NCBI GenBank assembly: GCA_008632985.1 | Contig: QPGO01000020.1 | Location: 620,001 to 684,000, forward strand | From: Psammoneis japonica | Lineage: Eukaryota | Reading direction: 5' to 3' | Length of the DNA stretch: 64,000 nt | In this document: one piece after another, positions 17,001 through 63,440 of the stretch | Numbering within the stretch: position 1 is the first letter of the stretch | How the letters are laid out: each line of letters starts with the position of its first letter | Translations under genes and position numbers: made by a program | The notes under the pieces: model-generated | Databases searched by the model: none | The model's input: the letters and a program-made list of their open reading frames with translations, nothing else | What the model was told of the DNA's origin: nothing

Positions 17001-17714
17001 CTTGCATTCTTCAACAAATTGAGGCAAGAGAAACATGCGCACATCATCTCCCATTGTGTGGCAAACATGTCCCACACAATGCCAACTCTTCAAGCTGTTC
17101 TTCCTCAAGAGCTCTGTTGAGCTTCCTGGCATTCCTCAAAACAAAGCCCATTGTTGCCTGTTTGACCATCATGCTCCAAGATTCTTCCCATCCTTTTTGT
17201 GCTTTTTGGAAAATCATGGCAGCTCTTACATTCCTCAAGCCATTGAACAAGGAGTTGGTGATGAATCATTTCCCACTCAGAGCCAAAATGACAAACACAC
17301 CCAAAGCTGTTGTTCTTTGATTCATGACATTGCTGCTCTTCATTTCAAGTGGTGTTGAATCTGGGAGCTTGGATGACTCAAGCACCTGGGAAGGGGGTTC
17401 TGTCTCTTGCAAAGGTCTTTCAAAACTGGCACTCTTGCCAGTCACAAACAAGGCATCCTTGTGCAACTTGGGGCCAATTTGACCATTGCATCAAAGGTTC
17501 ACCATGCAAGAGAATCATGGCCACCCTCATCATCTTGCATGCACACCCAAGATGATGTTTGCTGCTGGGAGCCTTCCAGCCAATGCACCCAATCATTTGG
17601 CTTGCATCAGTGGCAGAACTTTGAACAGGATCTGCCATTGCTCCAATCTCTGCTGTGCCATGTTCACACTGGTTGCCAAAACTCTGCAGCTCTGGCATCA
17701 ACAAATTTGCTTGC

Positions 17715-23100: not shown

Positions 23101-25301
23101 CCATTCTTTGTGCTGTGCATTCCATTGTTGTTTGCTTCCAGAAACAAGCCTCCCATCATTTGCCATGGTGGTGGTCAGGAGAACAATGGATGTGGTTGCA
23201 TCATGTGCAGGCGTGTCTTCCAACATCATGCTGTGTTTGCACTGTTTGGCCTCTTCGAGATGTTTTGTTGTTCAACAAATGAGACACAATTGACACACTC
23301 TTTTTTGACCACACAGATGAGACATAAAATGTGAGCACTTCATTGCCTCTTAGAGAACATTTTCATGCCCCACTTGCATTTCCGCGGAAGCATGACACAT
23401 GGACATTGATTGTGACACAGACCAAAGGAGCCGGTTTCCAGGTTGTTTTGCAAAAACTGGCAAACTGCGCCCACACCCTGCTTGTGCCACAAGGGCAGGA
23501 GTGGTGTTTTGGCCCATTGCTTGTGAAAAACTGTTTGACAGTGACAAGCTTTTTGCAAGTCTCTGCTGTCACACAGAGGTGACTTGTGAAGGTGGGCGGT
23601 GTTTTGGTTGACAAAAAATTGGATTTGTCTTGTTGATGCTGCACTCTTGCTTGCTCTTCATGTGCCATGTGAGTGGCAAAGCATTGGACAGATTGGATGG
23701 AGCAATCTTTGTTGCCATTGGCACTGAAACACATGGCAGCTGTGTTCCTCATGCTTTGTGCAGATGGGATGCATGGTGCATTGGGCACAGCATGAGCAGG
23801 CTCAGGAAAACTCTCATGTTTCTGGTGCCAGTTCTTGAAAAGCCATTTTGCTGGAGATGTGCCACTCTGCTTGACGGGGCCAGTGCTCATGTTTTCAGTG
23901 CAACTTGCAAGCTTGCAGCTTGCATCTTTCAAGCATTGAACAAAAAGATGGGAAAAAACCATGCTTTGCAGGGTGGACTGGCAGTGGGCGGCAAAAAGGA
24001 GCATCACATGTTGAGCAACAGGACGTTGGATCCAACATGCTGATGGCTGCACAATGATGGCTGTTGCAGCACTTTGACAACTCCCACTTGCAAACACAAC
24101 TGCAAGACCACCACGCAGGATGCTGCCATCTTGATGGGAGGCGCCATCATTTTGGAACATTGCTGGCCCCACTTCTGCTGTCCAGAGTGTGCCAAAGCTG
24201 CCTGAAGTGATTGTGAGCAAGAGAAGCTCATCCATGAAGAGACTTGCCAAGCTCTCTTGGTGGCACGGTGGCCATCATTGAGATGGGCAGCACCTCTGAG
24301 GTGGAAGTCAAGGAAAAGAACAAGAGCAATGTTGACACAGATGCATTGAATGTCACCCATGCAACTTCATCCTGGCTTTGGTGGAATGCTGTGTGGATGA
24401 TGCACATTTGTTGTGAATTCGACTGGGAAAGTCACTCCTTTGGAGACTGGCATTGTTGTCCTTTTTCTGGAAAACAACATTTGGAAACTGCCACATCAGT
24501 GCACTGCAATGGCAGATTGGAAAGGCAGCTCAGTCCCAGAAAGCTTTGTTTTCAATCTCTTGCACACCCCCCACTCCATTCTGGGCGCGTGATTGATGGG
24601 CAGTCTTTCAGCCTCTGTGACTCCTGTTTCTCACTGGAACGAAGAAGAAGAGGCAGCAAGCATGAGAACAAAACTGTTGCTGCCAAATGTGCAAGTGGCA
24701 TCAACACAACAACAGCCCTGCATTTTGGATTTGCAAACACGCTCCCCTTTTGGATGTCAGTCTGAGTTGATTTGTCAATTGATTGATTTTGGATTTGCAG
24801 GTGTGGATCGCTGATGCGCCACAAGATTGCTTCTGTGCTTCAATGTGCAGAGGCACTGGTGATCTCCATTCAACCAGTTCTGAGGTGCTGCTGGCACTCC
24901 CTGGTTGGCTGCAGCTGGCTGTTCCCCAAGACATTTGGGGCATCTGTCGCACATTTGGTTTGTCGTGTGTGGCAAGAAACTCGGGTTGTGAGCTTTTTCT
25001 CTTCCCACCTGGAGGTCAAGCTGTGGCCCACAAGCCTGCGCTCATCATCCTGATCTTGCTTCCCCACAGATCTGTGTGGCACTTCAATCTCCATCCATTG
25101 CAGATGACTCATGATTCCTTGGACTGATGCCAGACAGAGGCAGCCCAAACATGAACTCACAGTTCTGCCGCGCCGTCGTGGGGTCAAGAAAACACACACA
25201 ACACAAACCACGTCATTCATTCTTGTCTCCAAAACAACCCTGACAATCCTCTGTTTCAATGAATTGTGATCAGAGTGAGCAATGTTCCGATCAGCCATCA
25301 T

Positions 25302-25351
25302 GCTCAGCGACCACACTCAGCGACCACACTCAGCGACCACGCGCTCAGCGA
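25302..25351 (+). repeat. 13-bp minisatellite (CTCAGCGACCACA) x~4
   Basis: Directly visible tandem copies. Confidence 0.8.
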
Positions 25352-25698
25352 CATGCCAGGAATTTGTGGGTGTTCCACACGAGTTCTGAACCACCACGAC
25401 TTGTTTCACGATTGTTGGGAACAGGGTTTGTGAGTGCCATGAAGGTGTTGGCTAAAAGATTTGACGGAGGATGTGTGTTGAAAACGGCATCCACGTTCAT
25501 CACACACACAGTGTGGTGCCGTCGTCAACAGCAGCGTCGAGTCGTCGTCGTCCAACAGATGATTGATGCGCTTCCGCGCGCGGTCTCGATCATCAGGTCG
25601 GATAGCGGAGGGAAGTTTCGCAAGTTGAAGTTCGCATGCATGCCGGTATCTTTGATCTTTGGCGCGTTTGGAAATACAGTACGAAATGGGTACTGTAG

Positions 25699-25748
25699 CT
25701 ACAATGCCGTTCGTTCGTTCGTTCGAGAGAGAGAGAGAGAGAGAGAGT
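25699..25748 (+). repeat. (TTCG)n + (GA)n microsatellite
   Basis: Directly visible. Confidence 0.9.
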
Positions 25749-41062: not shown

Positions 41063-41603
41063 TTTGTTGACGATACCGTCTGTTTTCGAATCGGTTGAGA
41101 AACGCACGAAATTACGCAAAAGGACTTGCTCACGCGCTAGAGATCAGCCGTCGAATTTCTACTGTATCTCTTAGACAGTCTCCGTCCTATGGATGGCGTG
41201 TGTGTGATGAAAACTCCTCGGTCTCGTTGCGGCTGTGAGCTGGTGTTATGCCATCATCATTTGCAACCTGCAACGCAAGCAACAACTCGCGGACGAAACA
41301 ATAGAAGAGCAAGCAAAACTTCCCGCCACTAACGTCCGTCTTCGTACGTCGAGGCACATCGGACTGACCACACACCGCACTGAGTCACATCGTCGTCAAG
41401 CGTCAAGCCACGCCACAATCATCAGAGCCGCCGCCGCCGCTCATCTGGCCCGTGATCTGCGTGAGAATGGGTGACCCAAGTTGGAAGTGCTTTTTTGCAT
41501 GTGTGGAGAATGCTTGCGAACCCACCGTGTGTTCTTCCTGGTGATTTCTTTTGTTCTCTCTTAATGAGGACTGGCCACCTGCAAGCTGCGAGCTTGTGTT
41601 GCT

Positions 41604-41864
41604 GGCCTGTTCCAGCTCCAGGTGCTCCGCGAGGGTTCGATTCCCATCATTTGGAAATTTGTGCATTTGGCGCAATTGACTTTTTTCCAAATCCATTTTT
41701 TGCCAAATCGAAGGGTGAGTGTACACTTTACATGCATTTTCGGGTGTACGCTCACCTTTTGATTTTCGAAACGATCAAAATTGAAGGAGTCAATTGCGCC
41801 AAACTGCGCAGAAAATCGGCCTCTCACGTGATGAAAAGCAGATCACCTGGAGCTGGAACAGGCA
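41604..41864. mobile_element. MITE family A, copy 2 (261 bp; TSD TGCT)
   Basis: Same TIRs and interior as 19278-19547; TGCT at 41600-41603 and 41865-41868. Confidence 0.9.
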
Positions 41865-44800
41865 TGCTGTTGCCCTGGCTGAAAGACTGCTCTTCGCTGC
41901 TTTTTTGTCATCTTGACAAATTGTCACCTGAAGTCAGCCCGTGTCTGTTGCACATGGCATGCCAGAGCCATGGAGTCCAGATGACATCATCTGCAGCTGC
42001 CTGCTGTTGACACCTTTTTTTAAACCAAAAGCTCAAAGAGACGCAAGCATCTGAGAATGCCCCCCTGGCACCAAGCCCTCAGCCAACAGCACGACATTTT
42101 GCAAGTCATGTTGAAATCCCCTGTGCACACAGCTGTGTGGCTGCCAAGCTTGGGGAGCACAGCTGCCGACAATGTGGACAAAATGCGCACACTTCTTCAT
42201 GCTGCACCTCTCAACAGGCCTGCCCTTTTCATCCCAGCTTGTTCAGATGATGCACACTGCAATCTTTGAAACTCATCTCATCTCATGAGTGTCTGAAAAA
42301 CAGCCTTTTGTTGCTTGACTGTGCTTTTTCACTCAGCATTGTTTGCAAAAGAGTTGGGTGAATTGGGCCTGGGTGTTTTTGCCAAAACCAAGTGTTCTTG
42401 ACCAGGTGGTGGTGGTCTGCAACTTGAATCTTAGCCTCAAATTTTCATTTTGTGTTTGGGCCTTCAATGTCAGCATCCTCAAATCCACAGCTCCGTCTGT
42501 CCTTGTCAAACCTGCAGTGTTTTTTTGCTTGTGACTGCAACCCTCGCCAGCACCTGTGCACCACCCATCCTTGTCATGCTGCCAAAGGCTGCGTGGGTGG
42601 TCAAATGAAAAGAGACAGTGCAACAGGTGAGAGATGAAAAAAGCAAAATGTGTTTGCTTGCCTGTCTCAGTGAGCCCAGTCCATTTTTGCCATGAAAGAA
42701 TGTTGCCCCTGCTCCCAGCACTTGCTCAAGCACAAAATCAGATTGCACAGCAAAGTCAGAGACCCAAAAATCAATGGATTGTGACCCTGTTGTGGTGGTG
42801 CAAGACAGTGCCAGCAGCACAGGAGATTGGTGCGGAAGTGGCCAAGAGTGTGCGGCAGAGGTGAGAAAGTGGCCAGGCTGTGAGAACCATCTTCCAGAAA
42901 GCAAAGCAAGAGCTCTCAGCGGCAATGGGAGGAACAAGAGCAGAGTGCTGTGTTTGCAGATTTTCCTGTGTGGACAATGACCCAAATCTGAAAGCAATGT
43001 TTTCACACTTTTTTGACTGATGGAGGGATGGCTGGAAAGCTCTGCCATGGCACCATTGATTTGGAGAGAGCTGGTTTGGACAAGTGAAAACAAAGAGCAA
43101 AGTTTGTTCACACAAAACTCTTGGTGTGTGGCAAAACATTGGCAAACTGCACTGACCATGCTGACATTCTCCAGAACAACAAAATTTGGCAAACTGAGTG
43201 CTTCTGCCTTCCATCTTTTGCAGCACATGATTCACGCTGGCAGCTGACAGATGCCAGCAAATGCATTGTGAGTGATGCATGCATTGTGCACCCTCGTCAT
43301 TCTGGCACTTTTCTTTGGAGTTGAAAAATGTCAAAAATGCAAAGCAAAATGAAAAATCAGCAGCACAGTGTTTGTGACACCCACAGCTGGATGCAATGAA
43401 AACTGAATTTGGTGCTTTTTGTCATTGTGAGACAACTTCCTCCCCACCAGAGCAAGAGCAATTGCCACACAGCAAAAAGCTGCTCTTTCCAAACAGCAGC
43501 TTGTGGCCATGTTTTTGTGCCAGCCTGTGTGCCTCCCAAGAGTGCAAATGCTCTCAAACACTGTGGCACACAGGGAAGTGCAAGGTGGAGGCATGCAGGA
43601 GACAGCAAGAAAGAAGTCAGAGAAGGGGCTTGCAAGTGCAAAATCATCCTGATGCCAGACAACCTGCTTTGGAGGAGAGGGGTCAAAAGCTGCACACTTG
43701 CAAAAATGGTGGACTTAGAAATGGGTCAGATCATTTGGGGAAAGAAGGAGTTGTCTTGCAGGAAGGATTTGACAAAGCACTTGTGAAAAGATTGCTTGAG
43801 GAAACTCAAAGAGAGAGCACAGATGATGTCAAATGTTTGGAGGGAAAAGATGCTCTTGTGTGACACGTGAGCTTTGATTTGTTTTTCTCATGACATGTGC
43901 ATTTGAGCTCCTGGCCCCAAGTCTTGCTTGCAGTCTTGCAAACACACCACAGCCAGATTTGAAAAAGAGGAGCTTGCCAACCATGCACAACAAATGTGGG
44001 TTGTTGGGTCTGCAATGACAGCCCAAGGAAGTGCTCACTCTTTTTTAGCCAGCTGGCTGGCAGGGCTGCAAGTCACAAAGTCCAAATGTGCATGTTGCAC
44101 AAGCTGCTGTGCTGCTCAGCTTGCTGGGACAAGCCTGCATTGCAAGAAGGATTGTGCACTTTGCTGGCTGTTAAAGTCACAGCACCAAGTGAACAAAGAC
44201 CAAGCCCTGCAGGAGGACAAACTTGGAGTGAAGTCAGTGGCTTGTGGACAAAGCAGGCAGCTCACTTGCACACATGCATGAAGCAAGTGTGCAAAAACAC
44301 CAGCCCATGAGACCCAGCACACTCTGCAGCAGAGCAAGCAAGCTCAGAAACAGCCTTGCAGCTGCTTGTTGTTGGCAGCAACCCTCTCTTTGTAGCTGCC
44401 TTTGTGCTGCTTCTGTCGCACCACCTGGCACACAAGGCACAGAGCACAAAGCACAGCCACACTCTGATGCTTTTTGAGCAAGTCTGGCACAGAAGTTGGT
44501 GCTCAGTTGGTGTGTTGCCTGCTGTGCCAAGTGGAAATGTGCCCTGGACAGAAAACAGATGAAGTGTGTTTAACTGGACAACACACAAAAGAGCTCCAAG
44601 CAAAAAGAGCACCAACAAGCCACAGTGCATTTGGCCCTCATTGAAGAGGAGGAGCAAAAGAAATCAAACATGGGGGCCAGTGTGATGCAGATCCTGCAAG
44701 AGTGGTGGTCTGTGAAATTGGTGGTGGTGGCACATTGCATGAGCCAAAGATGGTGCTCTGATGGACATGCACAGCATGTGGCAGATCACGCCATCAGTGG

Positions 44801-45625
44801 TGAAATGACATCTTCCCTTTTTGTTGGGGAGTGCCCAGCACATGAAGTGTCGACACAACTGGCAGATGCCAGCCAGCAGCAGCAAATGTCCTGCAGCTGT
44901 GGTGCAGGCCTTGTGAAAGAGTGAAGGTGTGCACCATGGCACAAATTTGCTGCATGAGCCCAGCCCACACAGCTGCTCACAACTCTTGCACAGAGAAGCT
45001 CAAGCACACACTCATGCAACCAAGAATCATTTCACAGCAGAAAAGCACCCTGGCTGCCTTCTTCCTTTGCTGGGTGGAAACTTGTGGTGCTGGGTTGTGA
45101 CAGAGTTTGTTCTTTGTCACATGCTGCACAAAAGACACACCCATTTCTGCATGACACTGGATTTGGTTTGCACTGAAAAAGTTTTGGGTCATGAAAACTT
45201 TTGACATTTTTTGCATTTTTGAGTGTCTGTGCTGGAATGATGCAACCTCGTCCATTTCCAAAATTTCAAGTGGCAAGAAGAGGCACAACGGTGCTGCAAA
45301 AAGGCGGTTGCTTCTTTTTTACATTGAGGGCAAATGTGCACTGCCCAATGATTTTGCTGCAAAGCCCGCCACACACACAGAATTCTGTGGGCCCAATGTC
45401 GCAGGGCACCCCAGCCACATTTTGCTGAAATGCATGTTGGCAGCAGGCAGAGGTGTGTGCCAACTTAGAAGCAGCTTTGCAGCTGTTGTCAACCTGCTTT
45501 TGTTCATCTCCAACAAACTTGGCACATGAAGCATGATCCTTTGTCACAGAGGTTGAGAGCTCGGTGCCTGCGCCAGAAGCAGCACACAAAAACAACTCTC
45601 TTGCAGACAAAGAGGCAGCAGAGAG

Positions 45626-45629
<4 letters not shown>

Positions 45630-45666
<37 letters not shown>

Positions 45667-45672
45667 AGAGAG
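45630..45672 (+). repeat. (GA)n microsatellite
   Basis: Directly visible. Confidence 0.95.
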
Positions 45673-46376
45673 CTCTTGCTGTGCTGCCAATGGCAGGGGA
45701 GGAGGGAGACCATGGCAAAAACTGTTGGCTCTTTCCTTGTGTGTCAAGGCCAGGGCAGCTGCTGGGCACAAAAGAAAGCTGCTGGCAACTGAAGCTAACA
45801 CAAAAATGCCAGCAGCTCACTGGCTGCAACTCCATGAACTCAACTTCAAAAAAATGCACACTGAACATTGCATTGCCCGCCCTGTGTGCGTGGTGGTTTA
45901 GTCCATGTTGTTTGAGAGAGTCGTCCGTCGTCACACATCTCCACACCTCTTGCTCTGTGCGGGCGGCCGGAGGTGTTGCACAGAAAATGCTCCAGCATAT
46001 ATGAAATTTAAATTTTAATGAAAGTATTAAAGCTTGAATATCGTCAATATTTTGATATCAAATATCTCGTGTTCATGAATTTAAAGTTAACATTAATTTT
46101 TGGAATGATGGATCCGCATCGTCCATCGTTGTGGCGTTTGTCACAAAGACAGAAAATATACCGGTACACTATGTATAGTAAGCTTGCTCATGCTGATGCC
46201 GCCCGTGAAAGAGTGAATATACTGCGGCTTTGTTTTCCTTTTACCGGTACACCTTCTTGGCATTTTCTCCTCATCATTATCTAGAACCCAACGCCACACC
46301 GAATCATCACACCGGTGCAAGCATGTCAGAGTTTCATCATAGATGGTATTTATGTTCTAGAGTATAATCATTCAAA

Positions 46377-48781: not shown

Positions 48782-49453
48782 GGTGGTAAGGATATGGTGT
48801 GCAGATGGTGTGTTGAAGGCATGCGTCAGTGTGTGTTGCGGCAACCGCCTTGTGTATCTCGCAGCGTCAGTTCTGCGGTATCCTGTTGTCCATCATCAAG
48901 AGGCGTTTCATTGCAGGGCTGTGGGTAATCGACGCTACGAATAAGCCAGAGAACAACCGTGTCAACATCACCGTTGTATGTCCATTGTCCATAAAGTGCG
49001 AAAAAATGCTCAAGCACTTTTCTTTGCCGTTTTCGCTTTTGCCTGTCGTGTGCACATGGCTGGATGGACGTACAGTAGAGTGTTCTTACCGACCCGTAGG
49101 GGACCCTTTTTTCCGGGTCTCTTTTTGTATGACGTCATCGTGCGAATATAATAGCGCCACCTGACGTCACCGCACCTGTAAGTCGCCATGAGAACCCGTA
49201 GAAAACGCCATGTCTTACAGCTACAGGGGGGAAACATAACCTGCTGTATCTGTAAGCGGAATGATTTCCGCTCGTACAAATTCTACGTGATTTCCCCGTG
49301 CACCGTCGCTTGCGGGTCGAATCAGAACTCCGAAGAAATGATGTGTGAGAAGCAAATCCCGTGACACCTCTCTCGCGACAAAAAACACACATCAACGCAT
49401 TCTCACGATGCTCTAGTCATAACAAGTCATAGCATCCATGCAACACATCTGTC

Positions 49454-50512
49454 ATGCCTGGTGGACAGCCACAGAGTCACAAGTTGTCATGGGCATTGAA
49501 AGAGTTGAAAAAGAAGGAGAGATCTGGTGGCTCCGGTGGCGCTGACGGGGAAAAAAATGCGAGCGGTGCTGGTGGCATTTCTGCGCTCGATGTTGACAGG
49601 CCAGCCCCGCATTTGACCATGGATGGAAAAGAATCAACTCTTGTGGAAATGACAAATCTCCCAATCGATCTTACGGAGGATGAAAAAGTTGACATCATCA
49701 ACAAGGAGAAGGGAGTCACGAAAAAGCCGAAGCTTCCAAACTTGCTGGCTCCTGAGAACGAGGCCTTGTTGCGTGATCTGCTGCAAATCACACAAGCAGC
49801 AAAGGCAAATTGGCATGTCAAGCACATGTCCAAAAATGCAACCACATCTTCAATCTGGCAGCCAATCATGGACGAGTTCTGTGACCCACCTGACGGCCCT
49901 GCACGTGGCTGCGCCAAGCCAGATGGTGAGCATGCGGCGCGCACCTTCAAAGAAAAGTGCTGGAGTGTCATGAAATCATTGGCGAATTTTGCCAAACAGA
50001 AGAAGGAAGAGGATTGCTCCCCGTGTGAGGTGTCTGCATTGTTCATGTGGAACGAGCAGCAGGAACTGGTCAACAAAGACAAAGAGACCAAGTCGGAAGC
50101 AATGGCCTTGCAGAAGGAGAGGGCAGCTGCAAATGCTTCATGTGAAGCAAAACTAAAGCTTGAGCCCCCACCTCCATTCACAAAGAAGCGCCCAGTCCCA
50201 AGTGCAGCTGTCAATCCATCTGAGAGGCCTGATGGAAAAGTGCCGGGGGAGCCGAGGTCAAAGGACCGTGTGCTGGATTTGGAAAAAACTCAAGACAAGG
50301 CAGACGAAGTCTTGAGTGGCATTAAAGCTTTTTTGCCATCCAAGGAAGAGATTGGAGAACTCAACAAGCGCAAGAAGAGGAAGCTTCAGCTTGATGCAAT
50401 GGCGTCTGTGGCAACAATGATCACGCAGGGCAGGGATGCGGGTCTCGACGTTTCAAGGTTTGAAAAGCATTTCAAGCACCTGCAAGACGAGTTCTTCGAA
50501 GACCAAGCTTGA
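49454..50512 (+). CDS. Harbinger accessory ORF (putative Myb/SANT-like DNA-binding partner), Tyr-free, probably inactivated
   Basis: 352-aa ORF inside the TIRs, convergent with the transposase; 0 Tyr. Myb/SANT identity is inferred from position only. Confidence 0.6.
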   Translation: MPGGQPQSHKLSWALKELKKKERSGGSGGADGEKNASGAGGISALDVDRPAPHLTMDGKESTLVEMTNLPIDLTEDEKVDIINKEKGVTKKPKLPNLLAPENEALLRDLLQITQAAKANWHVKHMSKNATTSSIWQPIMDEFCDPPDGPARGCAKPDGEHAARTFKEKCWSVMKSLANFAKQKKEEDCSPCEVSALFMWNEQQELVNKDKETKSEAMALQKERAAANASCEAKLKLEPPPPFTKKRPVPSAAVNPSERPDGKVPGEPRSKDRVLDLEKTQDKADEVLSGIKAFLPSKEEIGELNKRKKRKLQLDAMASVATMITQGRDAGLDVSRFEKHFKHLQDEFFEDQA

Positions 50513-50741
50513 AAGAGATGAGGCTTTGCTTGGCACAAATTAGGACACATGTTGCATGTCGCCACAACAACTTCAGAGCCACACAGAAAAAAATCTGTGG
50601 CCTCTCACAGTGCATGCTGAGCATGACGACCCCGCAAAGTTGCGCGCCAAATTCCCAGTGCGTTAAAATGAGCTGGGCGTTGCTCCAGAAGCAATGGGAA
50701 TTTTGCAACAACAAACAGTGTCAACGTCATCTAAAGAACGA

Positions 50742-51712
50742 GAGCTTTCTAAATGGTGTCTTTTTTATTTCCATGCCCCTGTCAGATCCGAATCGGCGTC
50801 GAGATGTCCAGACGACCCCGCAGTTGCGCGCCAAAATCCTGGTGCGTTTTGCTTGAACAGGCGTTGCTTTAGAAGTGCTTAAATTGTGGGACAATCAATG
50901 GCAGCAACATTGTCACAGAGTGAGAGCTTTGTGTCTTTTTTATTTCTACACCCCCATCAGATCCGAATCGGCGTCGAGATGTCCAGACGACCCTGCAGTT
51001 TCGCGCCAAAATCCTGGCACGTTTTTTTTTTTGCTTGAACACGCATTGCTTTAAAAGCACCCAGAATTGTGGGACAATCAACGGCAGTGACATCATTTGC
51101 AGAACAAGAGCTTTCTAATGGTGTCTTTTTTATTTCCACGCCCCTGTCATATCCAAATCGGCGTTGAGATGTCCAGACAACCCCGCAGTTGCGCGCCAAA
51201 ATCCTGGTGCATTTTGCTCAAATGGGCGTGGCTTTAAAAGCACTTGGAATTGTGGGACAATCAATGGCAGCAACATTGTCTGCAGAACAAGAGCTTTCTA
51301 ATGGTGTCTTTTTTATTTCTGTGCCCCTGTCAGATCCGAATCAGCGTTGAGATGTCCAGACGACCCCGCAGTTGCGCGCCAAAATCCTGGTGCGTTTTGC
51401 TTAAACAGGCACTGCTTTAGAAGTGCTTGGAATTATGGGACAATCAATGGCAGCAACATCTTCTACAGAACGAGAGCTTTCTAATGGTGTCTTTTTTATT
51501 TCTGTGCCCCTGTCAGATCCGAATCAGCATTGAGACATCCAGACGACCCCGCAGTTGCTGCCAAAATCCTGGTGCGTTTTGCTGAAATGGGCGTAGCTTT
51601 AGAAGCACTTGGAATTGTGGGACAATCAATGGCAGTGACATTTTCTACAGAACAAGAGCTTTCTAATGGTGTCTTTTTTATTTCCACACCCCAATCAGAT
51701 CCGAATCGGCGT
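50742..51712 (+). repeat. ~183-bp tandem array, ~5.3 copies, between the two Harbinger ORFs
   Basis: gagctttctaatggtgtcttttttatttc..cagatccgaatcggcgtcgagatgtccagacgaccccgcagttgcgcgccaaaatcctgg recurs at ~50742, 50925, 51108, 51291, 51474 and 51656. Confidence 0.95.
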
Positions 51713-51806
51713 CGTTCAGGAAATAGAAGCGCTGAGAGTTTCGCAACAATGTGTGACACAAAGACAAAAGAAGCTACATTCATGCTGAGTTTGCAACAAC
51801 ACAGAT

Positions 51807-54363
51807 CTAATGTAAATTTAAGCAGTTTTGAATTGATGGTGGATCGACACCAAATGTGCCGATCGCACCAATCTGGTTGTGGTTGAAGCACGTGTAACAA
51901 TTTGTGAGCAAGAAAGACACGCGAAGCTGCTCACAAGCATGCGGTGTTTCACAGCATGGCTTGAAAGGACAAAACGTCCTGCAAATTCGAAAGACATTGG
52001 ATGCAACACCATGGCTCCACTCTACCGTGATGCGCACTGCCTTGAGCTGATAATTTTCGAGCACCTGAATGGGCGTGAGTGGAGCTAGCCCGTTGTGGCC
52101 GGGGCGATGCGCATGAATGACGCATTGTTGTTGAGCAAATCCCCGGTCCGCATGCACAGCATGCACCATGCCATTTGGAAAGCAGCCTTGCTGAATGTCC
52201 AGCAAGTGTTGGTTCACGGCTGACAAGTGCTGCAAATCGGTGTCAGCTCTGGCAAACTCGAACAACACAAAGAGCAATGAGAGTGTGATGAGCAGCCACA
52301 TTTTACAGGAAATGCAAAGCACATCGGACTTGTTCCAGACTTAGGTGGCGCGCACATGCCCCTTTTCGCAGAAAAAATAATTTTTTAAAGCTTTATTTAA
52401 CACCGTACATATTTAATAAAATTGAATATATTAATGGCTTTTAAGTAAAATAAACAGAATAAACTCGAACAAACAAACAGCCAAACCGGCCATGGCTTTC
52501 AGTGACCATGACGGCCCACTTTTTTCAGCCTTATGGAAAATTGAATGTCATGACCAGGATCTCCGTATTTGATATAGTCTGTGTCATCAACAACAATAGT
52601 GAAAATGCTTGTTGAAGGCTGCAGCGCGGCACAATAATGCTAAATCTGTCAGCAACAACAATTGAGCCTCTATTCACTCACAATTTGCCTCTAAGGACCA
52701 TTTCTTTTCTATTACCATGTATATTTCCTCAATATATTCGACTGATTCAAGTGTATCAATCGTTTATGCCTTCTAAACCGTGAAAAATGGTCCGAAGTCG
52801 ACGCCATTGCGTGGGCTGAGCTACACTTCTTCTCACGTCGTCCTAAACTTATTAATCAACGGATGCTTTATTCGATCCGTTGAATGTAACTCGTATTCGC
52901 GTATATAAACAAAATATTAATTATGCTATGTTAAAGACTTAATTTATATATATTAATAATATTTTATATGTTTCTTCTTACATTAAGGCGTATATAAATC
53001 GCTCATCGGAAAATTCGAGCTCTCAACTTACGGTACAATTTAGCGACTAATGACTGAGTCCATCAACAGTTTCGAATACATGGGTACACGCACAAGACAA
53101 TTCTGTATGTACCCATAAAAACACATTTGTAAATTGTTATGTTTTTACTCTATCGAAAATGGTGCCGCAAGTGTGGACCGCGCGTTTCATGCAAAAAGGG
53201 TCATTTTTTTGCGCGTGAGTGCACCCAAGTCTGGAACAAGTCATCGGCAATGCACAACTGTGTGCTTGCCTGCGAGCTGAAGTGGGACCCCATGTGATGC
53301 TCAAGCCGTTTGGAAAAGTTGTTGCAAGCATCTTCATGCCGTGAATGTGCTTGCACCCCGTGCACACCGATCGCTGAATGTTGTCTGCGTCAGGGCGACG
53401 CGGTGCATCTGCCCAGTCCTCAACTGGCCCTGTCCCTGGAGCATTTGTTTCAAACATTGAACAATCCACAAAGCCAAAAATGTTGAATTCCCCTGGTGGA
53501 CAAACAAGACCGGGGACGTTGTGCACTTGAGCAGTGTCCGGGTCAGTCCAAGTAGCCCGTTGCTTCAGTTTTCGCTCCATTGCTCTTGCAAACAAGGGAA
53601 AGTCATCAATCCACCTTTCAAGACCTTGTTGCCCAAGTGTGGGAGCACATCTGTCATCAAGATGCATCAAAAACCACCGGCATCCATGCGACCACCGAGT
53701 CAAATCCCTGCCTCCAAAGCACTCATCCACCAACACGGCATTGTCGAGTCCAAGTGCCACCTTGGTCAAGGAAAACAAAAACAATTCCTCACCGGTGAAT
53801 TGGCAATGATGCCCATGAGCACATGGCACAAGAACCAAATCGGGCAGGTCAAACAAAACACACAATTGTCGCAACTGATCCACATTGAATCGTGTCATCC
53901 GCTCGGCGCAGTTGTCAGAGCATTCATCAATTCGTCGGTTATGAGGCAAGACAAAATCAGCAGCACGATGCTCTTCCTCGCATGTCATGTCGCCAATTGC
54001 TGCGTTGCAATCTGCCCAAATGTGAGCCACATGATGACATGCAAAAATGCCACCCAATGTGTGCGCAAGAGCAACGCCAAACGGATCGTCCACATTGCCA
54101 ACTTGTTCTGGATCCAACAAATGACCATTGTCCTGGTTGAAAACATCAATTCTGGACACAATTGAAAGCAGAGTGAGAGTTGCAGACCATTGAATAAGTG
54201 ATTGAACAGAACGCGTCCAGAACACCTCTGTTCTCCTTGGCGCTGACACTCCTCGAGCGTTGAGAGACCTGTCCCTCATGTTTCTGTTGGTGAGCCGCCG
54301 TGGCAATTTGCGGCGGTGTCCATGGTGAAACAGACGTGGTTGTCTTGGCATGATGTGCATCAA
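51807..54363 (-). pseudogene. Harbinger DDE transposase (DDE_Tnp_4-like); exons 54363-53270 and 52248-51807
   Basis: IFGFVDCS, QRSVCTGCKHIHGMK, FPNG, GPTSARR|AD, HADRGF, ENYQLKAVRITVEWSHG, LLTNCYTC. The exons join in frame; the donor reads GCAAGC. Confidence 0.9.
52327..53242. mobile_element. MITE family B (916 bp; TIR GACTTGTTCCAGACTT[A/G]GGTG; TSD ATCG), inserted in the transposase intron
   Basis: 21-bp TIRs with one mismatch; ATCG at 52323-52326 and 53243-53246; AT-rich interior. Confidence 0.9.
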
Positions 54364-54915
54364 GAGTGCAACAACAATGCGACTGCAAAAGTGTTTCTTT
54401 ACCTTGGTGGATGAGAACCCGCAACCCCATCGTCAAAGCATCAAAGCCGCACCCGCACAGGTTGAGCTGATCGGCTGCAGCACCGGGCAGGCGAATTGTG
54501 ATTGAGTCGAGTGGTGAAACACGAATGGATCAGAACCCGAGACCCATGACCCATGCGGGTCGGTAAGAACACTCTAGCACCGGGCGGGTGGTGCGGACGA
54601 AAATGAGGTTCGTCCATCTGTCCATTGAAGCTTGAAGATGTTCGAGCAATCGGTCATCGCGGTCGGTGCCTGGTGCTCGCGGTGCTTCAGTGCTCGGTGC
54701 GGTGCGGCATCATTGGACGCAGTGACGATGGTGCCCACGACTTGCAAAAGCAATGCTGATCCGAGACATTGCATGATTTTTTCTTGTGGATCTTGACCAA
54801 AATGTTGCAATGGCCATGGTTGTTGCACCCCAAAAGAAGCGTTTGGTGAGGCCTCAAAAAGACGCTTCATGCACGAACAGGTGACAGGTGGCTCTCCATT
54901 TTTTTAGCTCTCGGC

Positions 54916-56030
54916 ATGGCAAGTTGCGTTCTGCTGCATTTGTTGGTTCTCGGAGGATCTGTTTTTCTTTTTCGCAATGTCCTTTGGGATCATGAAAGCC
55001 TTCGTGGTGCCTTCAGACATCGCAAACACCACATCTCATGCCCCTGCGTTCAGCGTCACTTGGTGGAAATTTCCAGCTCCACCCATCTCGATTGGAAAAG
55101 CATCTCCACCATGTCAAGAATGAAAGCAAAGATGACGTGATTTTGAGTGAGAATCTGTTGCAAGTCAAAATGCCCTGTTTAGATCATGCCCGGCGCTTTC
55201 TCTTTTTTCGGATGCCTTGGATGCGCTCAAGCTGCAGCGAGGAAAGGATTTGTGTTTGCACACGCGCCAAATGTGGGTTTGCCGCTCAGCATCATGATTG
55301 GTGCCCGGGGCACATCAAAAGGCTGGCATTGTCAACAAGAACATGGATGCCAGAGATGACTTTGTCCATCCCATGTTGAAACAACATTTGGAGGAGGAAG
55401 ATGTCAATTCATCCAGAGCGTGCAAGAAACAACAGACAGCACAATGGCGGTGCATTGCACGGCATGTGTCAATCGATCTGGGCTCATGGGGTGGTGCAAT
55501 GTGTGATTCATGAAGAACAAGTTGTCTTGAGAAAATCCATCTGTTGTCAACAGTGCTGAGGAAATGTGATTTTGAGATCAAACCACAACTTTCAGTGGCA
55601 GCTGGCAGCACTGGCGGGCACGACATGAAGGGTTGCTCGGGCCAGCTCCAGGAGAGCTGCAGTGCATTGCAACAGAGCCACTGAAAAGCCATTCTTCCAA
55701 TGGGCAAAAAGAGACACATGTGGTGGATGCCCCCCTGTTTGCAGTTGCACAGAGTGTTGCACCCGTGTCGTCTGCAGCCTCTTGGCAGCCAAGGCTTCAA
55801 GTGCTGCTCCCATGTGGATTCGTCCACCAGGTCTGAGGTGCAAGTTGTTGCGGCACTGCCAATTGCTTTGGGATTTTCAACTCTGTGTTTCAAAGCCGTG
55901 TCATGTCAAATTGATGAATGATCATGGGTTTTTCTTCATTTGGGTTTTCCTGTCCAAAGCTCTGCCTCCTGCTGCAATCATCCACCTGAAGCTGCAGGAC
56001 CGTGCGTCAGCAATGAGAGACTGAGCCAGG
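54916..56030 (+). pseudogene. Hypermutated remnant of a probable host type II membrane gene (possibly sulfotransferase-like)
   Basis: MASCVLLHLLVLGGSVFLFRNVLW N-terminal TM-like segment and ICVCTRAKCG (resembles a PSB-type KCG motif); lies outside any TIR pair; no TA seen. Confidence 0.3.
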
Positions 56031-56380
56031 GCATTTGAAAGCGACATCAGTTGCATCAGAAACTCGCTTTGCCGAGGAACATTCTGTGTGAGGCAAAAGA
56101 GGGTGCGAGACATTGAGCAACATGCATGCATGTTCTTCTGGAGCAGCACTCGAGCTTCAGGTTTGGGCGGGGGCAGTGAATTGGAACTGCCACGACAAAA
56201 AGGTGTCTGGTTGTGGGGTGCATGATCTTTTTTCTGCTCGTGAGTCATTCAGAAATGCTTGAGGTTGCTCGCATCCCACATCAGGATGAGGACACTCTGG
56301 AGAGGAAAAGTGTTTGCAACGAGTGTGGTGTCTTTGTGAATGCTTTCAGATGCTTGCACTGGGGCCGGAGTCTCTTCTTG

Positions 56381-56935
56381 GACGTGTTCCAGCCGCACGT
56401 GAACCAAATCGTGCACAAAAACGACATTTGCGCGATTTTTGCGCGGTCCCTAACTTACGATCGAACTTTCACCACCAAAAGTATAGATTTATACAAATAT
56501 AAATGTTTTGCAACACTAACAAGACTCGTGTGAGTGTTGCAATATCATTGTTATTGTGCTATCTATGTTTTTCATTGCGTTAAAAGATTCGTAACACAAC
56601 GGATGATTTTCGGCGAAAATATTGCCGTTATTTGGCTGTTACCTAAATATATCTTTCTACGATGCTACTTGGTAGGTTTTCTACCTACAAAAAAATCTCA
56701 GTATAAATCTACTGACGTACAATCAGTATTGAGTCTACTGAGGAAGTTTATGATACATATCCCATGAGGATTTGAATACCCCTCAAAAAACTATTTAAAT
56801 GTTCATACTCTAGAAGCCTATAACAGTCAATCCGTCTAAGTATTTTTATTAAAATGCTATATACACTAAAATATACATAAATTATATTCAAAATCCGATT
56901 GTCGTTTTGTGCGTCACCTGGGACTGGAACACGTC
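56381..56935. mobile_element. MITE family C (555 bp; TIR GACGTGTTCCAG....A[C/G]GTGA; TSD CTTG)
   Basis: Inverted ends; CTTG at 56377-56380 and 56936-56939; AT-rich interior. Confidence 0.85.
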
Positions 56936-57190
56936 CTTGTTGGAATGGCATGGGGCGGGCAGGAAGAGCCCTTGTTTCTTCAGGGCCACACACTGATCTC
57001 CTTGATGATCTAGATTCTTCCAAGGCTGAGGCATCAGATCCACTCGTGATGAGCGGAGAATCCAGAACTCGATCGCCGAGTGCGATGAAACAGATGGCCC
57101 AGATCTTGTCGTTCAAACAGAGTCTGTCGTTAACGGTCGAGCGCATGCTGAGACAAATCATGGTCTGTGCAATGACGGCAACCTGTTCTT

Positions 57191-60100
57191 GTTCAGTCTT
57201 GGCACCAGAACCCCGGGACTGAATCCCTGGTTTTTGAAAATGTGGGTTTGAACCCCAAAATGAAAACATGGGATTGAAACCCGGGTTTTTGTTCACGCAG
57301 CTCGCAGCACTTTTTCTGCGTAATTTTGCCATTTCTTAGAACCCGATGTGACTTTGCTTCCCAGTTCTTGCAGAAAACAGATCACTTGATCCACTGCATG
57401 GCCACTGCTGCTTGCAATGTTGAACAAAGAATTTGACATTTTATGTGGCATTGCTGTCCTGCTGTTCAATGAGACTTTTGATGTGATTTGCATTCTGTCT
57501 CTTCACCGCAATTGATGGTGGTGTCCAGTCAGTCTTGCATTTGTTTGAAAACAGCTGAGTGTCTTCCCTGCCAAGCCCATGCAACAGTGCATCATGACAG
57601 TCAAGGAAACAGGTCTTCTTGCCGCTTGTGCCTCGGTTGGTGGGGAAGTGCAATGGTTTCCCACACAGGTTGCAACTCGAGTGCGAGTCTGCCCTGCACC
57701 AAACACAGACCCTTGGATGCTTGTGGCTGGCAGACACTGCATCGAACTGACAATGTAAGTGCGGCAAACCATGACATGGACAAGATTCATTTCCACCCTG
57801 CTGAGCGTGTTGGCATTGTTCCAATGTCACAAAATTGTGAGTCGTCGTCATTTGTTCCGAAGCCGCTCTTCGATGATGGTTTTGTTGCATTGCAACCCGC
57901 ATTGCGGAGTCACCATGGTGTAAACATGCTTCAGGGTGACACTGCAGCATCTGTCTTGAGAGTTGTTCTCAGAACTCCCAGCAACCCATTGGACTGTTGT
58001 CTTTCCAAGACAAGTCTGACCCACCCTCCGCCACTTCCAAATGCATGTCATGCGCAATGATGATGGCCATGGCCTTGCCATGGTTCATGGCAGAATGCCA
58101 ATGCTTCCAAGAGCAACAGAACATCTTTGCATTTTTGATGCAATGATCCATTGAATCAATTCGTGAGTGAGTTGAAAGATGCAGATCACGGGCTTCATTC
58201 ATCTTGATTGCCCAGTGTTGCTTGCTCTCGTTTCCACCTCTTTCCCGATGCTTCACATGTTTGTTGCACTGGTTGAGGGCATTCACAGCAGCAATGTTGC
58301 ACAACGAGGTTGATTGAAATGAGCAAAGCACATGTTGGTGTCCCTCAGTGCTGCGTGTGGGCACCACAGTCTTGACAGCAACAATCGGATGACCAAATCT
58401 TGCTGCTTTTGATCTTGCATCGGATGGTGTTTGTTTTTTCTGAAAGCACTTCCCTGGCACTCCCGAAGGCAGCCGATCCCTTTGACGTGTGAATGCAGCC
58501 GAATGGCCATTTTCTCCAATCCAGTCTGAGCTGTGGTCAGCATCAAAGCAGTTGTCACATGTTGTGTGTGGCTTTCCTTGGAACATCTTCTTGGGTCCGG
58601 CGTTGTCACCCATTCTGCCAAAATCCACCATTTCGCCTGCTTGTTCCAAGATCACACGGATTTCTGTCAGGCCCATGGCACCCCCCATCCATCTGTCCTT
58701 GGGTGCAATTTGTGTCGGTGAACACAAACCCAAGGTCAGATCCAGTGTGCATCCAACATGATCACTGTCTGACCACCCTTGGCAATGCCGGGCTTTCCAA
58801 CTGTGCGACCGGCAATCCCGCCACCAGCGTCACCACAACCCGCATGGCCCCAGGTGGTTTCGTCACCACATTGATCCAATTCTGCATGGTGTGTCATCGC
58901 GTTGACATTGTGAGCTGTTGTCGTGCATGTCATGTCATGCTTGTGGGCCGGGTTGCACCCAGCTTCTCCTCTTCTGGGGGATGTCATGTTGTTGCATGGC
59001 TTCAGCACTCGCTTCATTTGAAGCCAATGTGAATGATCAATTGACGAGGACATGTCTGAGTCGCAGTCGGATCCATCAGCCATCCACCTGCGGTGAATGG
59101 CTCCGTCACTGCCACCCTTGACACCGTCTCGGACAAATCTCTGTCAAATCTGACAAGCTCCTGGATGCTCACAAGTTTGAGCTGGTGTCCATGCGAAGAG
59201 CACAGCTTCAACTCTCCCGCGGTGCACAAGTTTGAACATGTTTCTGCTTCGCTGCAGAACGACTTTCTGGGGTCTGAGTTGACACCCGACCGTGTGGTGT
59301 CACACATTGGCAGAATCAATTGATGGAAAACAAAGCATCCCAATTTTTCATCTGCTCAGCTTTCATTCCCAATGATCGCAACACATCTGTGTCCAATGAT
59401 CCTTTCCCAATGCCTGGAAACAGGTTGTCTTTTGATGCACCCGATCCATTCGGCAGCGACAACATCTCAGATCTTTGTCATCATCAGCAACATCATCGTT
59501 GGACATGGACCGATCCCACCCCTGATGAAAGAACCACCATCCATGGGAAATTTGTTTCCCTTCCAAATTCTCAGGTGCCGGTGCGGCACCAGTTGGCAAG
59601 CTGTGATGAATGTGCTCCTTCTCCCCTCTTGCCTCAAACTCAGGGCGGAGCGCATGTGTCTGCTCCACCCTCCGGGATTGTCCACATCAGCAAATGGTGG
59701 CTCTCCCTTGTCTGCTTTTATTTCAGGCAGCTGCCACCCTTCAGGAGCACCTGGAACATTCAACTGCACCGACGGGTCATGCTCACCATGGTGCAGCAGC
59801 AAGGCAGCATGGTCATTGTCAGCCACAGTCTGTCCGTCACTGTCTTGGTCCACAACACGTGATCTCAACCGTTCCAAATGGGCTTCAGCACAAGCTCCAT
59901 CAATGTCATTGACATTCTCATGCTCTTCGTCGCTGTCACCACCATCTCCCGTCTCTGTCTCATCCTCAAGGACGTGCTCGGGGTTCACCAGTTGGTCCTC
60001 CACGGTTGCGGGACCAAAGTCTGTGGCCGTCATGCACAGTGGCAGCCCTGGTTGTTGTGCTGCCATTCCACCAAACGCTTCATTGGTGCTTTCAGAGGCG

Positions 60101-60484
60101 GCCATCTTCGTCACGACGTTGATACTCCGATTCACTGAGCGTGTTACTTTGACGACAATGGCGGTGGCTGCGGTTGTTGGTTTTTTTTTTGTAGTCATCG
60201 GCTTTTCAACGTAGACTCAGGTAACATTTCTACGGTGATGCGTCACTGCAAAAAACCCGGGATTCAGTCCCCGAACACCCCGGTTTCAAGCCCACTCTAA
60301 TAACGACAACAAAATGCCAATGTAACTCCAACCGTTAGACATGTTATTTGAAGGGTAAACAGTCATTAACATCCCGACTAAACCCCTCTGAGTAATAATC
60401 AATGGTTATTGGATCTTTCCGTTCAACGGCTAACGGCTAAACCCGGGACTGAATCCCGGGTTTTTCGGGGCGCCCAGACTAAAC
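57191..60484 (-). mobile_element. piggyBac-like DNA transposon (hypermutated)
   Basis: Imperfect TIR GTTCAGTCTTGGCACC vs GTTTAGTCTGGGCGCC; subterminal palindromic CCCGGGACTGAATCCCGGG motifs at both ends; encloses the transposase remnants. Confidence 0.8.
57441..60198 (-). pseudogene. piggyBac (PGBD)-like transposase with C-terminal Cys-rich domain, fragmented
   Basis: CGDETTW, TTCDNCF (=DNYF), IDSMDH, SWKHWH, and C-terminal CVWC..CNLC..LH..CFLDCH; broken by stops and frameshifts; the main fragments are Tyr-free. Confidence 0.8.
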
Positions 60485-62569: not shown

Positions 62570-63440
62570 TTTCAAGGCGGCCATGTACTATTGCAGTTGT
62601 CCCACGTGATCTTGGATAGCCCATGGTAAACTGCCTTGAATTCAGCTACCATGCACCGATGTTGTCGTATCACCAGGTGGTTGCTCAGTGGAATCAGTCC
62701 GCTTTTGGCCTCAGCCGACCAAGATCCCCATGGGATTCGTGGCCATTCCGTATTAGAGAATCTTTGACTGTTTGGATCTCGAGAATATTCTTGCTGATTG
62801 GTATACACGCACATTGGAACGAATGATCTTGCTCCCGTCAAGCCAATACTCGATCCTCACGGTCCGTGCAGAGATTCCACGCTCTTTGCTATTTCTTTTT
62901 TACGTGGAGCCATTTGTATGTTCCCCTCTTGCCAAAGTTCCTGAGTCCCATGTTAGACGCCCCCGTGCCATACTTGGTCGGAGTTGTTCGTGACAATTGG
63001 AGATGGGCAGAAAAATACGTCAATGTAGAAACCGTTCTGATGGCTTGGATAGAAATTTGGTCACCCTTGGAGAAGAAACCGAACCGCTCCCGCCTCCTCG
63101 CAGTAGGAAATACTCAAAGCTTACAGCATCCCTTGAACAAGAGACTGGAGATATCTACTGGAAAACACGAGCAATCTGGGAGGAGCATCGAAGATTTGTT
63201 CACAAGAGAGCGGATTCAAAGGCTTGGGAAAAAGCTCGACCTGAGGGAGACAAACGATGGAATGAGAAATTGCATAAATATGACGAGGCGACAAGTGTTG
63301 GTTATTCACCAGATTCACTGAATCTCATCGATGATCCTCAGAACGAGAATCATTAAAGTCAGTGGGATCGAGCACAGGAAACGTTTCTGCGCTTTTTCGT
63401 TTCTACTCTAAAAGACTACAGTAAGTTCTTGGTGATGTGG
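62570..63440 (+). pseudogene. DENN-domain protein remnant
   Basis: LERMILLPSSQYSILT, FTWSHLYVPLLP..MLDAPVPYLVGV and dDENN-like QETFLRFFVSTLKDYSKFL, separated by frameshifts. Confidence 0.8.

Follow-up and report, generated by a model that had tools for sequence, protein, structure and literature searches.

Targeted A:T>G:C hypermutation of nuclear DNA has so far been the subject of one report, a 2026 preprint on one species, the alga Bigelowiella natans. According to the available portions of that preprint (Mettrop et al., bioRxiv 10.64898/2026.01.13.699255), integrated viral DNA in B. natans undergoes TpA hypermutation: in mutation-accumulation lines, where the de novo mutation rate was up about 1000-fold, two integrated viral regions, one of them single-copy, received 231 of the 302 nuclear mutations, and 230 of these 231 were A>G or T>C changes, all 230 at TpA. 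By our own calculation, the figures of the preprint (211 mutations, 6,169 TpA and 3,132 generations) amount to a rate of about 1e-5 per TpA per generation in B. natans. The same text describes 124 TpA-poor, CpA+TpG-rich clusters genome-wide, an enrichment of DDE transposase and reverse-transcriptase domains among TpA-poor coding sequences, and an ADAT2 homologue as a candidate adenine deaminase (10.64898/2026.01.13.699255). Here we analyze a stretch of 64,000 nucleotides from Psammoneis japonica (GenBank assembly GCA_008632985.1, contig QPGO01000020.1, positions 620,001 to 684,000 of the forward strand; hereafter the window), in which a Harbinger transposase gene, a piggyBac-like element and several other domains have lost nearly all TpA, and in which DNA poor in CpG is nested within DNA poor in TpA.

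Judging from the sequence footprint and from what the preprint text describes, the process that removed TpA here is of the same kind as the TpA hypermutation of B. natans, acting in another lineage of algae and with DNA transposons as its targets. In both, the change is confined to TpA>TpG/CpA, local tracts have little TA and much TG/CA, single-copy DNA can be targeted and the process is not constitutive, and the tracts of the window pass the cut-offs given for B. natans clusters (Rho TpA at most 0.43, CpA+TpG at least 1.52). Unlike B. natans, which belongs to Rhizaria, the host is diatom-like (Stramenopila); the TA observed/expected ratio (o/e) of 0.02-0.07 is one of saturation, compared to 0.45 in the giant-virus region of B. 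natans; and the targets are DNA transposons and a spacer instead of viral regions, with the TpA>TpG/CpA change known from its end state. The window also allows the relation of TpA loss to CpG loss to be read, which takes it beyond the preprint: in the preprint text (10.64898/2026.01.13.699255), supplements apart, the words 'CpG', 'diatom', 'stramenopile', 'context' and 'trinucleotide' do not occur. Relative to that text, the additions made here are the separation of TpA loss from CpG decay and its precedence over it, the indifference to copy number, and the sequence context of the surviving TA. In a full-text literature search, B. natans was the sole organism for which TpA hypermutation was reported, and nothing of the kind came up for diatoms.

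In fungi, the hypermutation known as RIP (repeat-induced point mutation) is imposed by the host, makes transitions at specific dinucleotides, ruins transposons and can spill over into single-copy DNA next to them. The locus described here resembles RIP in that transposon-ruining, dinucleotide-specific transitions reach single-copy DNA, but the product differs: whereas RIP makes C>T changes that turn CpA into TpA, or in some fungi act at CpG, and so enriches TpA and lowers GC, here TpA is erased, CpA and TpG stand at 1.5-1.9 (CpA o/e 1.5-1.8), and GC rises, to 0.50-0.51 in one tract (tract 3, below) compared to 0.46-0.49 in its flanks. Furthermore, the most repeated elements, miniature inverted-repeat transposable elements (MITEs), are spared and a single-copy spacer is hit, so that duplication sensing of the RIP type is not indicated. 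Diatom transposons are CG-methylated via DNMT5a (PMC9998398, as far as the accessible text goes), and the cores of two tracts (CG o/e 0.12-0.16, with a matching gain of TG/CA), as well as CpG-poor copies in other metagenomic loci, look like the outcome of 5-methylcytosine (5mC) decay; however, this decay covers only the inner, CpG-poor part of the affected DNA and cannot remove TpA. A further parallel is with the animal APOBEC/AID and ADAR defenses, which are likewise of the deaminase type and hypermutate foreign nucleic acid in a specific context; unlike animal editing, the change here has become permanent in the nuclear DNA of a protist, affects both strands and is located at TpA.

Nested loss of TpA and CpG

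We counted TA and CG in 320 bins of 200 bp, classifying bins with at most 1 TA as TA-poor and those with at most 3 CG as CG-poor, and placed the edges of depleted regions by maximum-likelihood change points, separately for TA and CG. The background, 37,200 bp in all, is uniform, with a TA o/e of 0.63 (44.1 per kb), a CG o/e of 0.97 (54.2 per kb) and TG/CA of about 1.15. Four stretches break this background, namely tracts 1, 2 and 3 and a partly converted one, in which TA is nearly gone and TG and CA are up to 1.5-1.9. Tracts 1 and 2 and their edges are as follows (here and below, a strand is given where the feature has one):

14850..25603: tract 1, TA-depleted domain with a CpG-depleted core at 15004-25169; 15001-25000 has TA o/e 0.03, CG 0.16 and TG/CA 1.74-1.86
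41346..45998: tract 2, TA-depleted domain with a CpG-depleted core at 41828-45878; the core (41801-45800) has TA o/e 0.04 and CG 0.12
Tract 1, left edge (change points): TA 14850, CG 15004
Tract 1, right edge (change points): TA 25603, CG 25169
Tract 2, left edge (change points): TA 41346, CG 41828
Tract 2, right edge (change points): TA 45998, CG 45878

The two depletions are separable, and CpG-poor DNA lies within TA-poor DNA. Among the 320 bins, 106 are TA-poor, and these divide into 59 CG-poor, 23 CG-intermediate and 24 CG-normal ones; conversely, 59 of the 61 CG-poor bins are TA-poor, with one TA-intermediate and one TA-normal. In the Psammoneis window, no CpG loss is seen outside DNA that has already lost its TA. 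The tracts are discrete and sharp-edged, as follows from the support of the change points (2dLL, that is, twice the log-likelihood difference, of 45-106); 33 of the 34 TA-free gaps of at least 200 bp lie inside them. Each of the four sharp borders of tracts 1 and 2 has its TA edge 120-482 bp farther out than its CG edge, and the clearest margin, 25141-25600, retains 32 CG (o/e 1.04) along with a single TA (o/e 0.04). When first-order decay from flank values is assumed for the partial tract and tract 3, the ratio of -ln(TA remaining) to -ln(CG remaining) is 3.1-7.7, and this is a lower bound because TA is saturated.

The original prediction, made from the letters of the window, was that TpA loss is uncoupled from CpG loss and wider than it, that TA conversion is faster or spreads further, and that the idea would fall if both depletions shared identical boundaries. 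The bin counts and the four offset edges bear out the uncoupling and the greater width, and the nested edges together with the decay ratio fit a faster or further-reaching TA conversion. That TA loss is not a mere by-product of CpG decay is likewise supported, by three lines of evidence: the bin counts, the 80 metagenomic loci examined below and, as far as the preprint text reports them, the mutation-accumulation lines of B. natans. The absence of both dinucleotides from the cores of tracts 1 and 2 was also read correctly, as were the CG-rich, TA-poor margins at about 25140-25600 and at 41190-41600 (29 CG and 5 TA in the latter). The margin placed at 14700-14830 held up only in its CG-rich half (12 CG): TA depletion there is mild (3 TA), and the real margin is at about 14850-15004. 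The prediction gave no name to the TA process and overlooked the two young insertions described below.

The Harbinger, spacer and piggyBac-like tract

Tract 3 and its left arm comprise the following features, where TIR stands for terminal inverted repeat:

49431..52326: partly converted left arm of tract 3 (TA o/e 0.22, CG 0.69), containing an open reading frame (ORF) at 49433-50512(+), a 183-bp array and the C-terminal third of the Harbinger gene at 51813-52250(-)
52327..53242: MITE A, 916 bp, 21-nt TIRs, 4-bp duplication ATCG; cuts the Harbinger gene at residue 284 of homologue P0001; TA o/e 0.89
53243..54605, minus strand: Harbinger (PIF) transposase pseudogene, N-terminal two thirds; TA o/e 0.07, CG 0.73, no Tyr codon
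54606..56379: single-copy spacer, continuing at 56937-57214 past MITE B; 2 TA in 1,800 bp, CG o/e 0.58
56380..56936: MITE B, 557 bp, 23-nt TIRs, 4-bp duplication CTTG; sits in the spacer; TA o/e 0.92
57215..60271, minus strand: piggyBac-like DNA transposon with 21-nt TIRs at 57215-57235 and 60251-60271; TA o/e 0.06, CG 0.56

Without its two later insertions (6,323 bp), tract 3 has 16 TA, where 279 are expected from the flanks (Poisson p 5e-96), and 235 CG, where 343 are expected (p 4e-10). This composition runs through the Harbinger part (53201-54600; 67 CG, o/e 0.73, and 6 TA, 0.07), the spacer (54601-56400; 65 CG, 0.58, and 2 TA, 0.02) and the piggyBac-like body (57001-60200; 113 CG, 0.56, and 11 TA, 0.06). 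The original prediction that these three parts keep CG while lacking TA is therefore confirmed, and the two CG-containing strings it quoted are present, at 53391 and 54658; what did not hold is that the spacer is uniformly so from 54.6 to 57.2 kb, given that it houses the 557-bp TA-normal MITE B. Its start of the tract at 53243 proved to be mistaken: this is the junction with the young MITE A, beyond which the Harbinger gene resumes at 51813-52250 and TA depletion reaches left to 49431.

The Harbinger gene was reconstructed through P0001, a homologue of 432 amino acids with the Pfam domain DDE_Tnp_4 (PF13359). The segment 53269-54021, contained in ORF 53137-54432(-), aligns to residues 24-284 of P0001 in tblastn, and ORF 51807-52340(-) aligns to residues 273-432 in BLASTP and 284-432 in tblastn. 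Because the two fragments match consecutive parts of P0001, they represent one Harbinger transposase gene split by the 916-bp element, and the second fragment itself scores 30.2 bits against DDE_Tnp_4 (PF13359; cut-off 24.8), which identifies it as a PIF/Harbinger transposase. The pseudogene at 57471-59970 spans residues 22-827 of P0003, a homologue of 834 amino acids. This ORF has no Pfam match, and among five homologues tested against DDE_Tnp_1_7 (PF13843) only P0009 scores, with 19.8 bits, below the cut-off of 22.4; by sequence the element 57215-60271 is thus only weakly piggyBac-like, and we use no label beyond 'piggyBac-like'. A TTAA target duplication could not have survived because the DNA is TA-free. 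When 39 transposase homologues were compared with the window by tblastn, matches were obtained in tract 3 only. Between ORF 49433-50512 and the Harbinger transposase lies a tandem array of 183-bp units (50722-51712; 5.4 copies, 83% matches) with a TA o/e of about 0.3 and near-normal CG.

Copy numbers were estimated from the depth of De Bruijn contigs from one public run that holds the stretch, in which unique sequence has a depth of about 60. Contigs of the Harbinger element have depths of 480-975 (about 8-16 copies) and those of the piggyBac-like element 490-1144; the spacer (54.6-56.4 kb) is at 63-134, and one contig of 1,802 bp matches it with 4 differences. Conversion is independent of copy number: the single-copy spacer is TA-free, whereas MITEs A and B, with summed depths of 5,295 (about 85x single copy) and 14,000-27,000 (300-400x), are TA-normal, and the 600-bp block 56401-57000 around MITE B holds 55 TA. 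MITEs A and B were inserted into the already converted tract 3 and are themselves unconverted. Their TIRs share the motif TGTTCCAG, and the group to which they belong has this motif in its terminal repeats and 4-bp target duplications (ATCG, CTTG, TGCC and TGCT). Two further members reside in the other tracts:

19273..19550: 278-bp MITE in tract 1, TIR GGCCTGTTCCAG..., 4-bp duplication TGCC; some TA and CG kept
41599..41867: second copy of the 278-bp MITE, in the left margin of tract 2, 88% identical to the first

Between these two copies, 12 of the 24 substitutions oppose TA or CG to TG/CA, and both copies are partly TA-poor.

TpA loss as mutation and competing explanations

The loss of TA can be traced to specific products. 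Measured against flank rates, TA and CG lost versus TG and CA gained amount to 880/811 in tract 1, 359/348 in tract 2, 371/414 in tract 3 and 128/120 in the partial tract (ratios 0.92-1.12), and the shifts of other dinucleotides, a rise of GC and a fall of AT, agree with what TAC>TGC, GTA>GCA, ATA>ACA and TAT>TGT would produce. At the protein level, 38 of the 52 positions at which homologues have Tyr are Cys or His in the window transposases and one is still Tyr: in the piggyBac-like pseudogene, the 27 aligned Tyr of P0003 correspond to 10 Cys, 14 His, 1 Trp, 1 Phe, 1 Val and no Tyr, and in the Harbinger gene, the 25 aligned Tyr of P0001 correspond to 8 Cys, 6 His, 1 Trp, 1 Tyr and 9 others. 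The replacement codons at former Tyr codons (TAY) are TGY and CAY, and in an alignment of 11 sequences all 9 homologue-Tyr columns are changed in the window (His 6, Cys 2, Trp 1). Both window ORFs lack Tyr, compared to 3.0-6.5% Tyr in intact homologues. Arg, which is in part encoded by CGN codons, is much better kept than Tyr (17 of 41, with 10 changed to Gln, His or Cys), a retention that mirrors the partial loss of CpG. Finally, TA o/e is 0.43-0.83 in 80 metagenomic loci that code for relatives of the piggyBac-like transposase, and none of the 80 is TA-depleted. Taken together, the mass balance, the replacement of Tyr by Cys and His, the TA-normal relatives and the retention of Arg indicate that the TA loss is mutational and not a native composition. 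Among the 2,994 500-bp bins of the metagenomic loci, two have at most 2 TA (L040 at 1201 and L069 at 3001); the corresponding patches, L040:1251-1750 and L069:3001-3500, have 2 TA, a CG o/e of 0.6-0.85 and TG/CA of 1.4-1.9 and are located downstream of the transposase match. They may be a native feature of one related element or a local conversion, and we do not claim them as hypermutation.

Both DNA strands were hit equally, as shown by the equality of TG and CA counts in every tract: 1111/1133, 460/448, 136/147 in the Harbinger part, 199/167 and, in the piggyBac-like element, 315/312, with no binomial p below 0.1. GC-biased gene conversion was considered and is ruled out since the loss is specific to TA, with AA and TT near background (o/e 0.87-1.30 and 0.96-1.00). 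Of the TA that survive in the tracts (counted over 15001-25000, 41868-45800, 49431-52326 and 53243-60100), 61 of 77 are in TAA/TTA context, 30 of 37 in the cores and 31 of 40 in the partial tract, against 36.8% of the 1,639 background TA (binomial p 5e-14). The contexts ATAC/GTAT and GTAC make up 25% of background TA and are absent from the survivors. This bias hints at an extended site of approximately R-T-A-not-A, which may be a fingerprint of the enzyme.

Differences among copies and homologues bear on the order of the two losses. Among 780 variant rows (624 transitions and 156 transversions), the best-supported 40 represent 33 events, 30 of them in the tract, and it is to these that the following counts refer. 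The 30 in-tract events consist of 15 differences of CG versus TG/CA, 7 CA versus TG doublets, 7 other transitions and 1 transversion; in the 15 CG differences, the window keeps CG in 4 and other copies keep it in 11, and in none of the 30 does another copy keep TA. CpG decay is thus still running in families from which TA is already gone. CpG depletion with a gain of TpG and CpA, as methylation leaves in transposon DNA, is evident in the cores of tracts 1 and 2 (CG o/e 0.16 and 0.12), and 33 CpG-poor bins with normal TA occur in 6 of the 80 metagenomic loci. Conversely, Tyr falls below 1% in 10 of the 150 family representatives from public protein data, which also show raised Cys and His, and Cys or His at conserved-Tyr columns; these are

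P0023, P0025, P0026, P0054, P0062, P0065, P0069, P0124, P0127, P0143: Tyr-poor piggyBac-like family representatives

and conserved Arg is kept in most of them (18 of 20 in P0026, 11 of 14 in P0025, 7 of 8 in P0054, less in P0124 with 7 of 15). By their sequence signature, these Tyr-poor representatives are hypermutated transposon relics called as proteins. The CpG-poor, TA-normal loci and the Tyr-poor, Arg-keeping representatives together indicate that, across copies and hosts, each loss can occur without the other.

Two alternatives grant that the losses are mutational. One enzyme system, such as a DNA deaminase of both adenine and cytosine that is not equally efficient at TpA and CpG, would turn the two depletions into stages of one process. 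This is in keeping with the common TG/CA products, with the shared islands (59 of 61 CG-poor bins being TA-poor) and with reports, cited in the accessible preprint text, that ADAT2 enzymes deaminate A and C in DNA (10.64898/2026.01.13.699255); we nevertheless regard it as improbable, given that the geometry differs (the 5' neighbor is fixed in T-A and the 3' neighbor in C-G), that the hypermutations reported for B. natans were at TpA in 230 of 231 cases, that CpG loss with normal TA is seen in metagenomic relatives (33 bins, 6 of 80 loci), and that the margins and the single-copy spacer lost TA at a CG o/e of 0.58-1.04. The other concerns the age of tract 3, which the original prediction tentatively took to be the youngest. 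Its near-full-length transposase homology (P0003 residues 22-827), the lack of any Pfam match above the curated cut-off in the 58 tract-1/2 ORFs and the segregating CpG differences are consistent with youth, although age is not separable from a lower level of methylation. Tract 3 might accordingly be no younger than the others but only less methylated or unmethylated, with slow CpG decay and an equally old TA conversion. Since two transposons have been inserted in it after conversion, tract 3 is not very recent; still, CpG accounts for 15 of the 30 in-tract copy differences, so that CpG is hypermutable in its families, and the homology of its transposase contrasts with the unmatched ORFs of tracts 1 and 2, which leaves an equal age with a minority of the probability.

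The remaining alternatives deny a host-imposed change at TpA in DNA. Transposons that insert at TA-containing sites exist, and TA is under-represented (o/e 0.63) even in the background, so that a TA-free state could be native or selected, avoiding TA/TTAA insertion targets or a TA-cutting nuclease. The change of conserved Tyr codons to Cys and His, which wrecks the transposases, the TA o/e of at least 0.43 in 80 of 80 metagenomic relatives and the TA-free state of the single-copy spacer and non-coding margins make this scarcely tenable. It is also true that some long-read base-callers make systematic consensus errors at modified motifs, and heterochromatic TpA bearing a modified base, and CpG bearing 5mC, could have been systematically misread in base-calling or assembly. 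De Bruijn contigs with a word depth of about 60, however, also show the spacer as TA-free, with 4 differences over 1,802 bp (the run is possibly the source sample and so not fully independent), the 10 of 150 family representatives that are likewise Tyr-free come from other public assemblies, the edges are sharp and the MITEs within the tracts read normally; an artifact is, therefore, highly improbable. The fixation of ADAR-like A>G RNA editing through an RNA intermediate, or transcription-coupled damage of one strand, would agree with the 5' U that ADAR favors (10.64898/2026.01.13.699255, in the text available), but the affected DNA consists of cut-and-paste DNA transposons and a non-repeated spacer, and editing of one strand predicts a strong skew that is not apparent in the TG/CA counts (136/147 in Harbinger, 315/312 in the piggyBac-like element), so that we give this explanation hardly any weight.

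A proposed model of two superimposed processes on transposon islands

In the window, the TpA>TpG/CpA conversion was imposed after insertion, on both strands, in sharp-edged domains, independently of copy number, and was complete before CpG decay. We propose, with a probability of roughly 0.75 for the model as a whole, that silenced transposon islands have undergone two distinct mutational processes, one on top of the other. The first would be a targeted hypermutation of TpA to TpG or CpA (A:T to G:C transitions), equal on the two strands and driven to saturation, that has a chromosomal domain, and not the repeat as such, as its target and so takes in transposon bodies, the single-copy spacer and a margin of a few hundred bp; it is probably enzymatic and episodic. 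The second would be the ordinary, slower decay of CpG to TpG/CpA by deamination of 5mC in methylated transposons, with methylation assumed from the diatom literature, and would have run almost to its end in tracts 1 and 2 and to about 40% in tract 3. If the first process is several-fold to orders of magnitude faster, CpG-poor DNA will always be nested in TpA-free DNA, and tract 3, being younger or less methylated, will be TpA-free yet CpG-rich. The wider TA edge requires no separate spreading rule, because where targeting fades at the borders a fast, saturating process can finish when a slow one has barely begun. The affected domains would be silenced chromatin, with targeting perhaps by heterochromatin or small RNA. 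As to the chemistry, our best guess is that an ADAT2/TadA-like enzyme deaminates adenine to inosine at T-A, as the preprint text proposes for B. natans; we put this enzyme type first among the candidates since an A preceded by U is its natural target, as it is for ADAR (10.64898/2026.01.13.699255).

Several points weigh against this proposal. At the right end of tract 3, TA depletion ends at about 60123, some 150 bp inside the element, so that the greater width of TA loss fails at this edge. The decay rates are derived from end states, and the 'expected' counts use flank values as a proxy for the ancestral composition of the transposons. For the multi-copy elements, conversion in place and copying from a converted source are not distinguishable from the best-supported 40 of the 780 variant rows. 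The spectra of paralogues within the window (the MITE pair, the tract-1 repeats and four background pairs) contain too few differences to part tracts from background, and the background pairs also show differences of the TA and CG types. Finally, because TpA is palindromic, A>G and T>C at this dinucleotide are indistinguishable by sequence, which makes adenine deamination one candidate chemistry only.

A saturated TpA signature in a diatom-like genome suggests that the system is probably phylogenetically wide. We consider it possible, at somewhat less than even odds, that TpA hypermutation is a genome-defense system common to algae of the SAR group (stramenopiles, alveolates and Rhizaria), acting on silenced domains whatever their copy number, before and independently of methylation decay, until TpA and Tyr codons are completely erased. 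The TpA process is separable from cytosine methylation, and comparison of genomes with and without TA-free transposons should offer a practical route to the enzyme; a natural TpA-specific DNA adenine editor would be of interest to base-editing work. The order of the losses, TA first and CpG later, could serve as a two-axis clock for ordering transposon invasions. For annotators, there is a warning here that Tyr-free, Cys/His-rich 'proteins' in algal gene sets are hypermutated transposon relics.

In a Pfam search of the 58 ORFs of tracts 1 and 2, none scored above the curated cut-off, and only two weak matches at chance level were seen (among 53 of them). Within tract 1, 17700-20130 is made up of degenerate tandem repeats of 20, 40 and 60 bp and contains six overlapping open frames of 200-400 codons; these frames are composition artifacts and not genes, because TAA and TAG stops are impossible in TA-free DNA. 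A Glu-rich segment of the same tract, 21430-21640, resembles the TA-normal segment 30585-30835 (79% column identity), and several of the differences oppose TA in the background to TG/CA in the tract; the alignment is too short to be used.

The host genes of the neighborhood are TA-normal:

3524-3898, minus strand: adaptin exon
7323-9357, minus strand: multi-exon Cpn60 gene
12780-13826, plus strand: ORF with an E3-binding domain of the 2-oxoacid dehydrogenase E2 type, ending about 1 kb from the left edge of tract 1
62827-63318, plus strand: DENN-domain exon

One Cpn60 exon (7619-8008, minus strand) reaches 81% identity with diatom proteins, and its ten matches that carry organism names are, we presume, from diatoms or a diatom-bearing dinoflagellate, some of the names having been completed from fragments (Gra..., Minuto..., Kry...). 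A host ORF of 428 amino acids has a best match of at most 41% identity, and its organism-named matches are diatoms.

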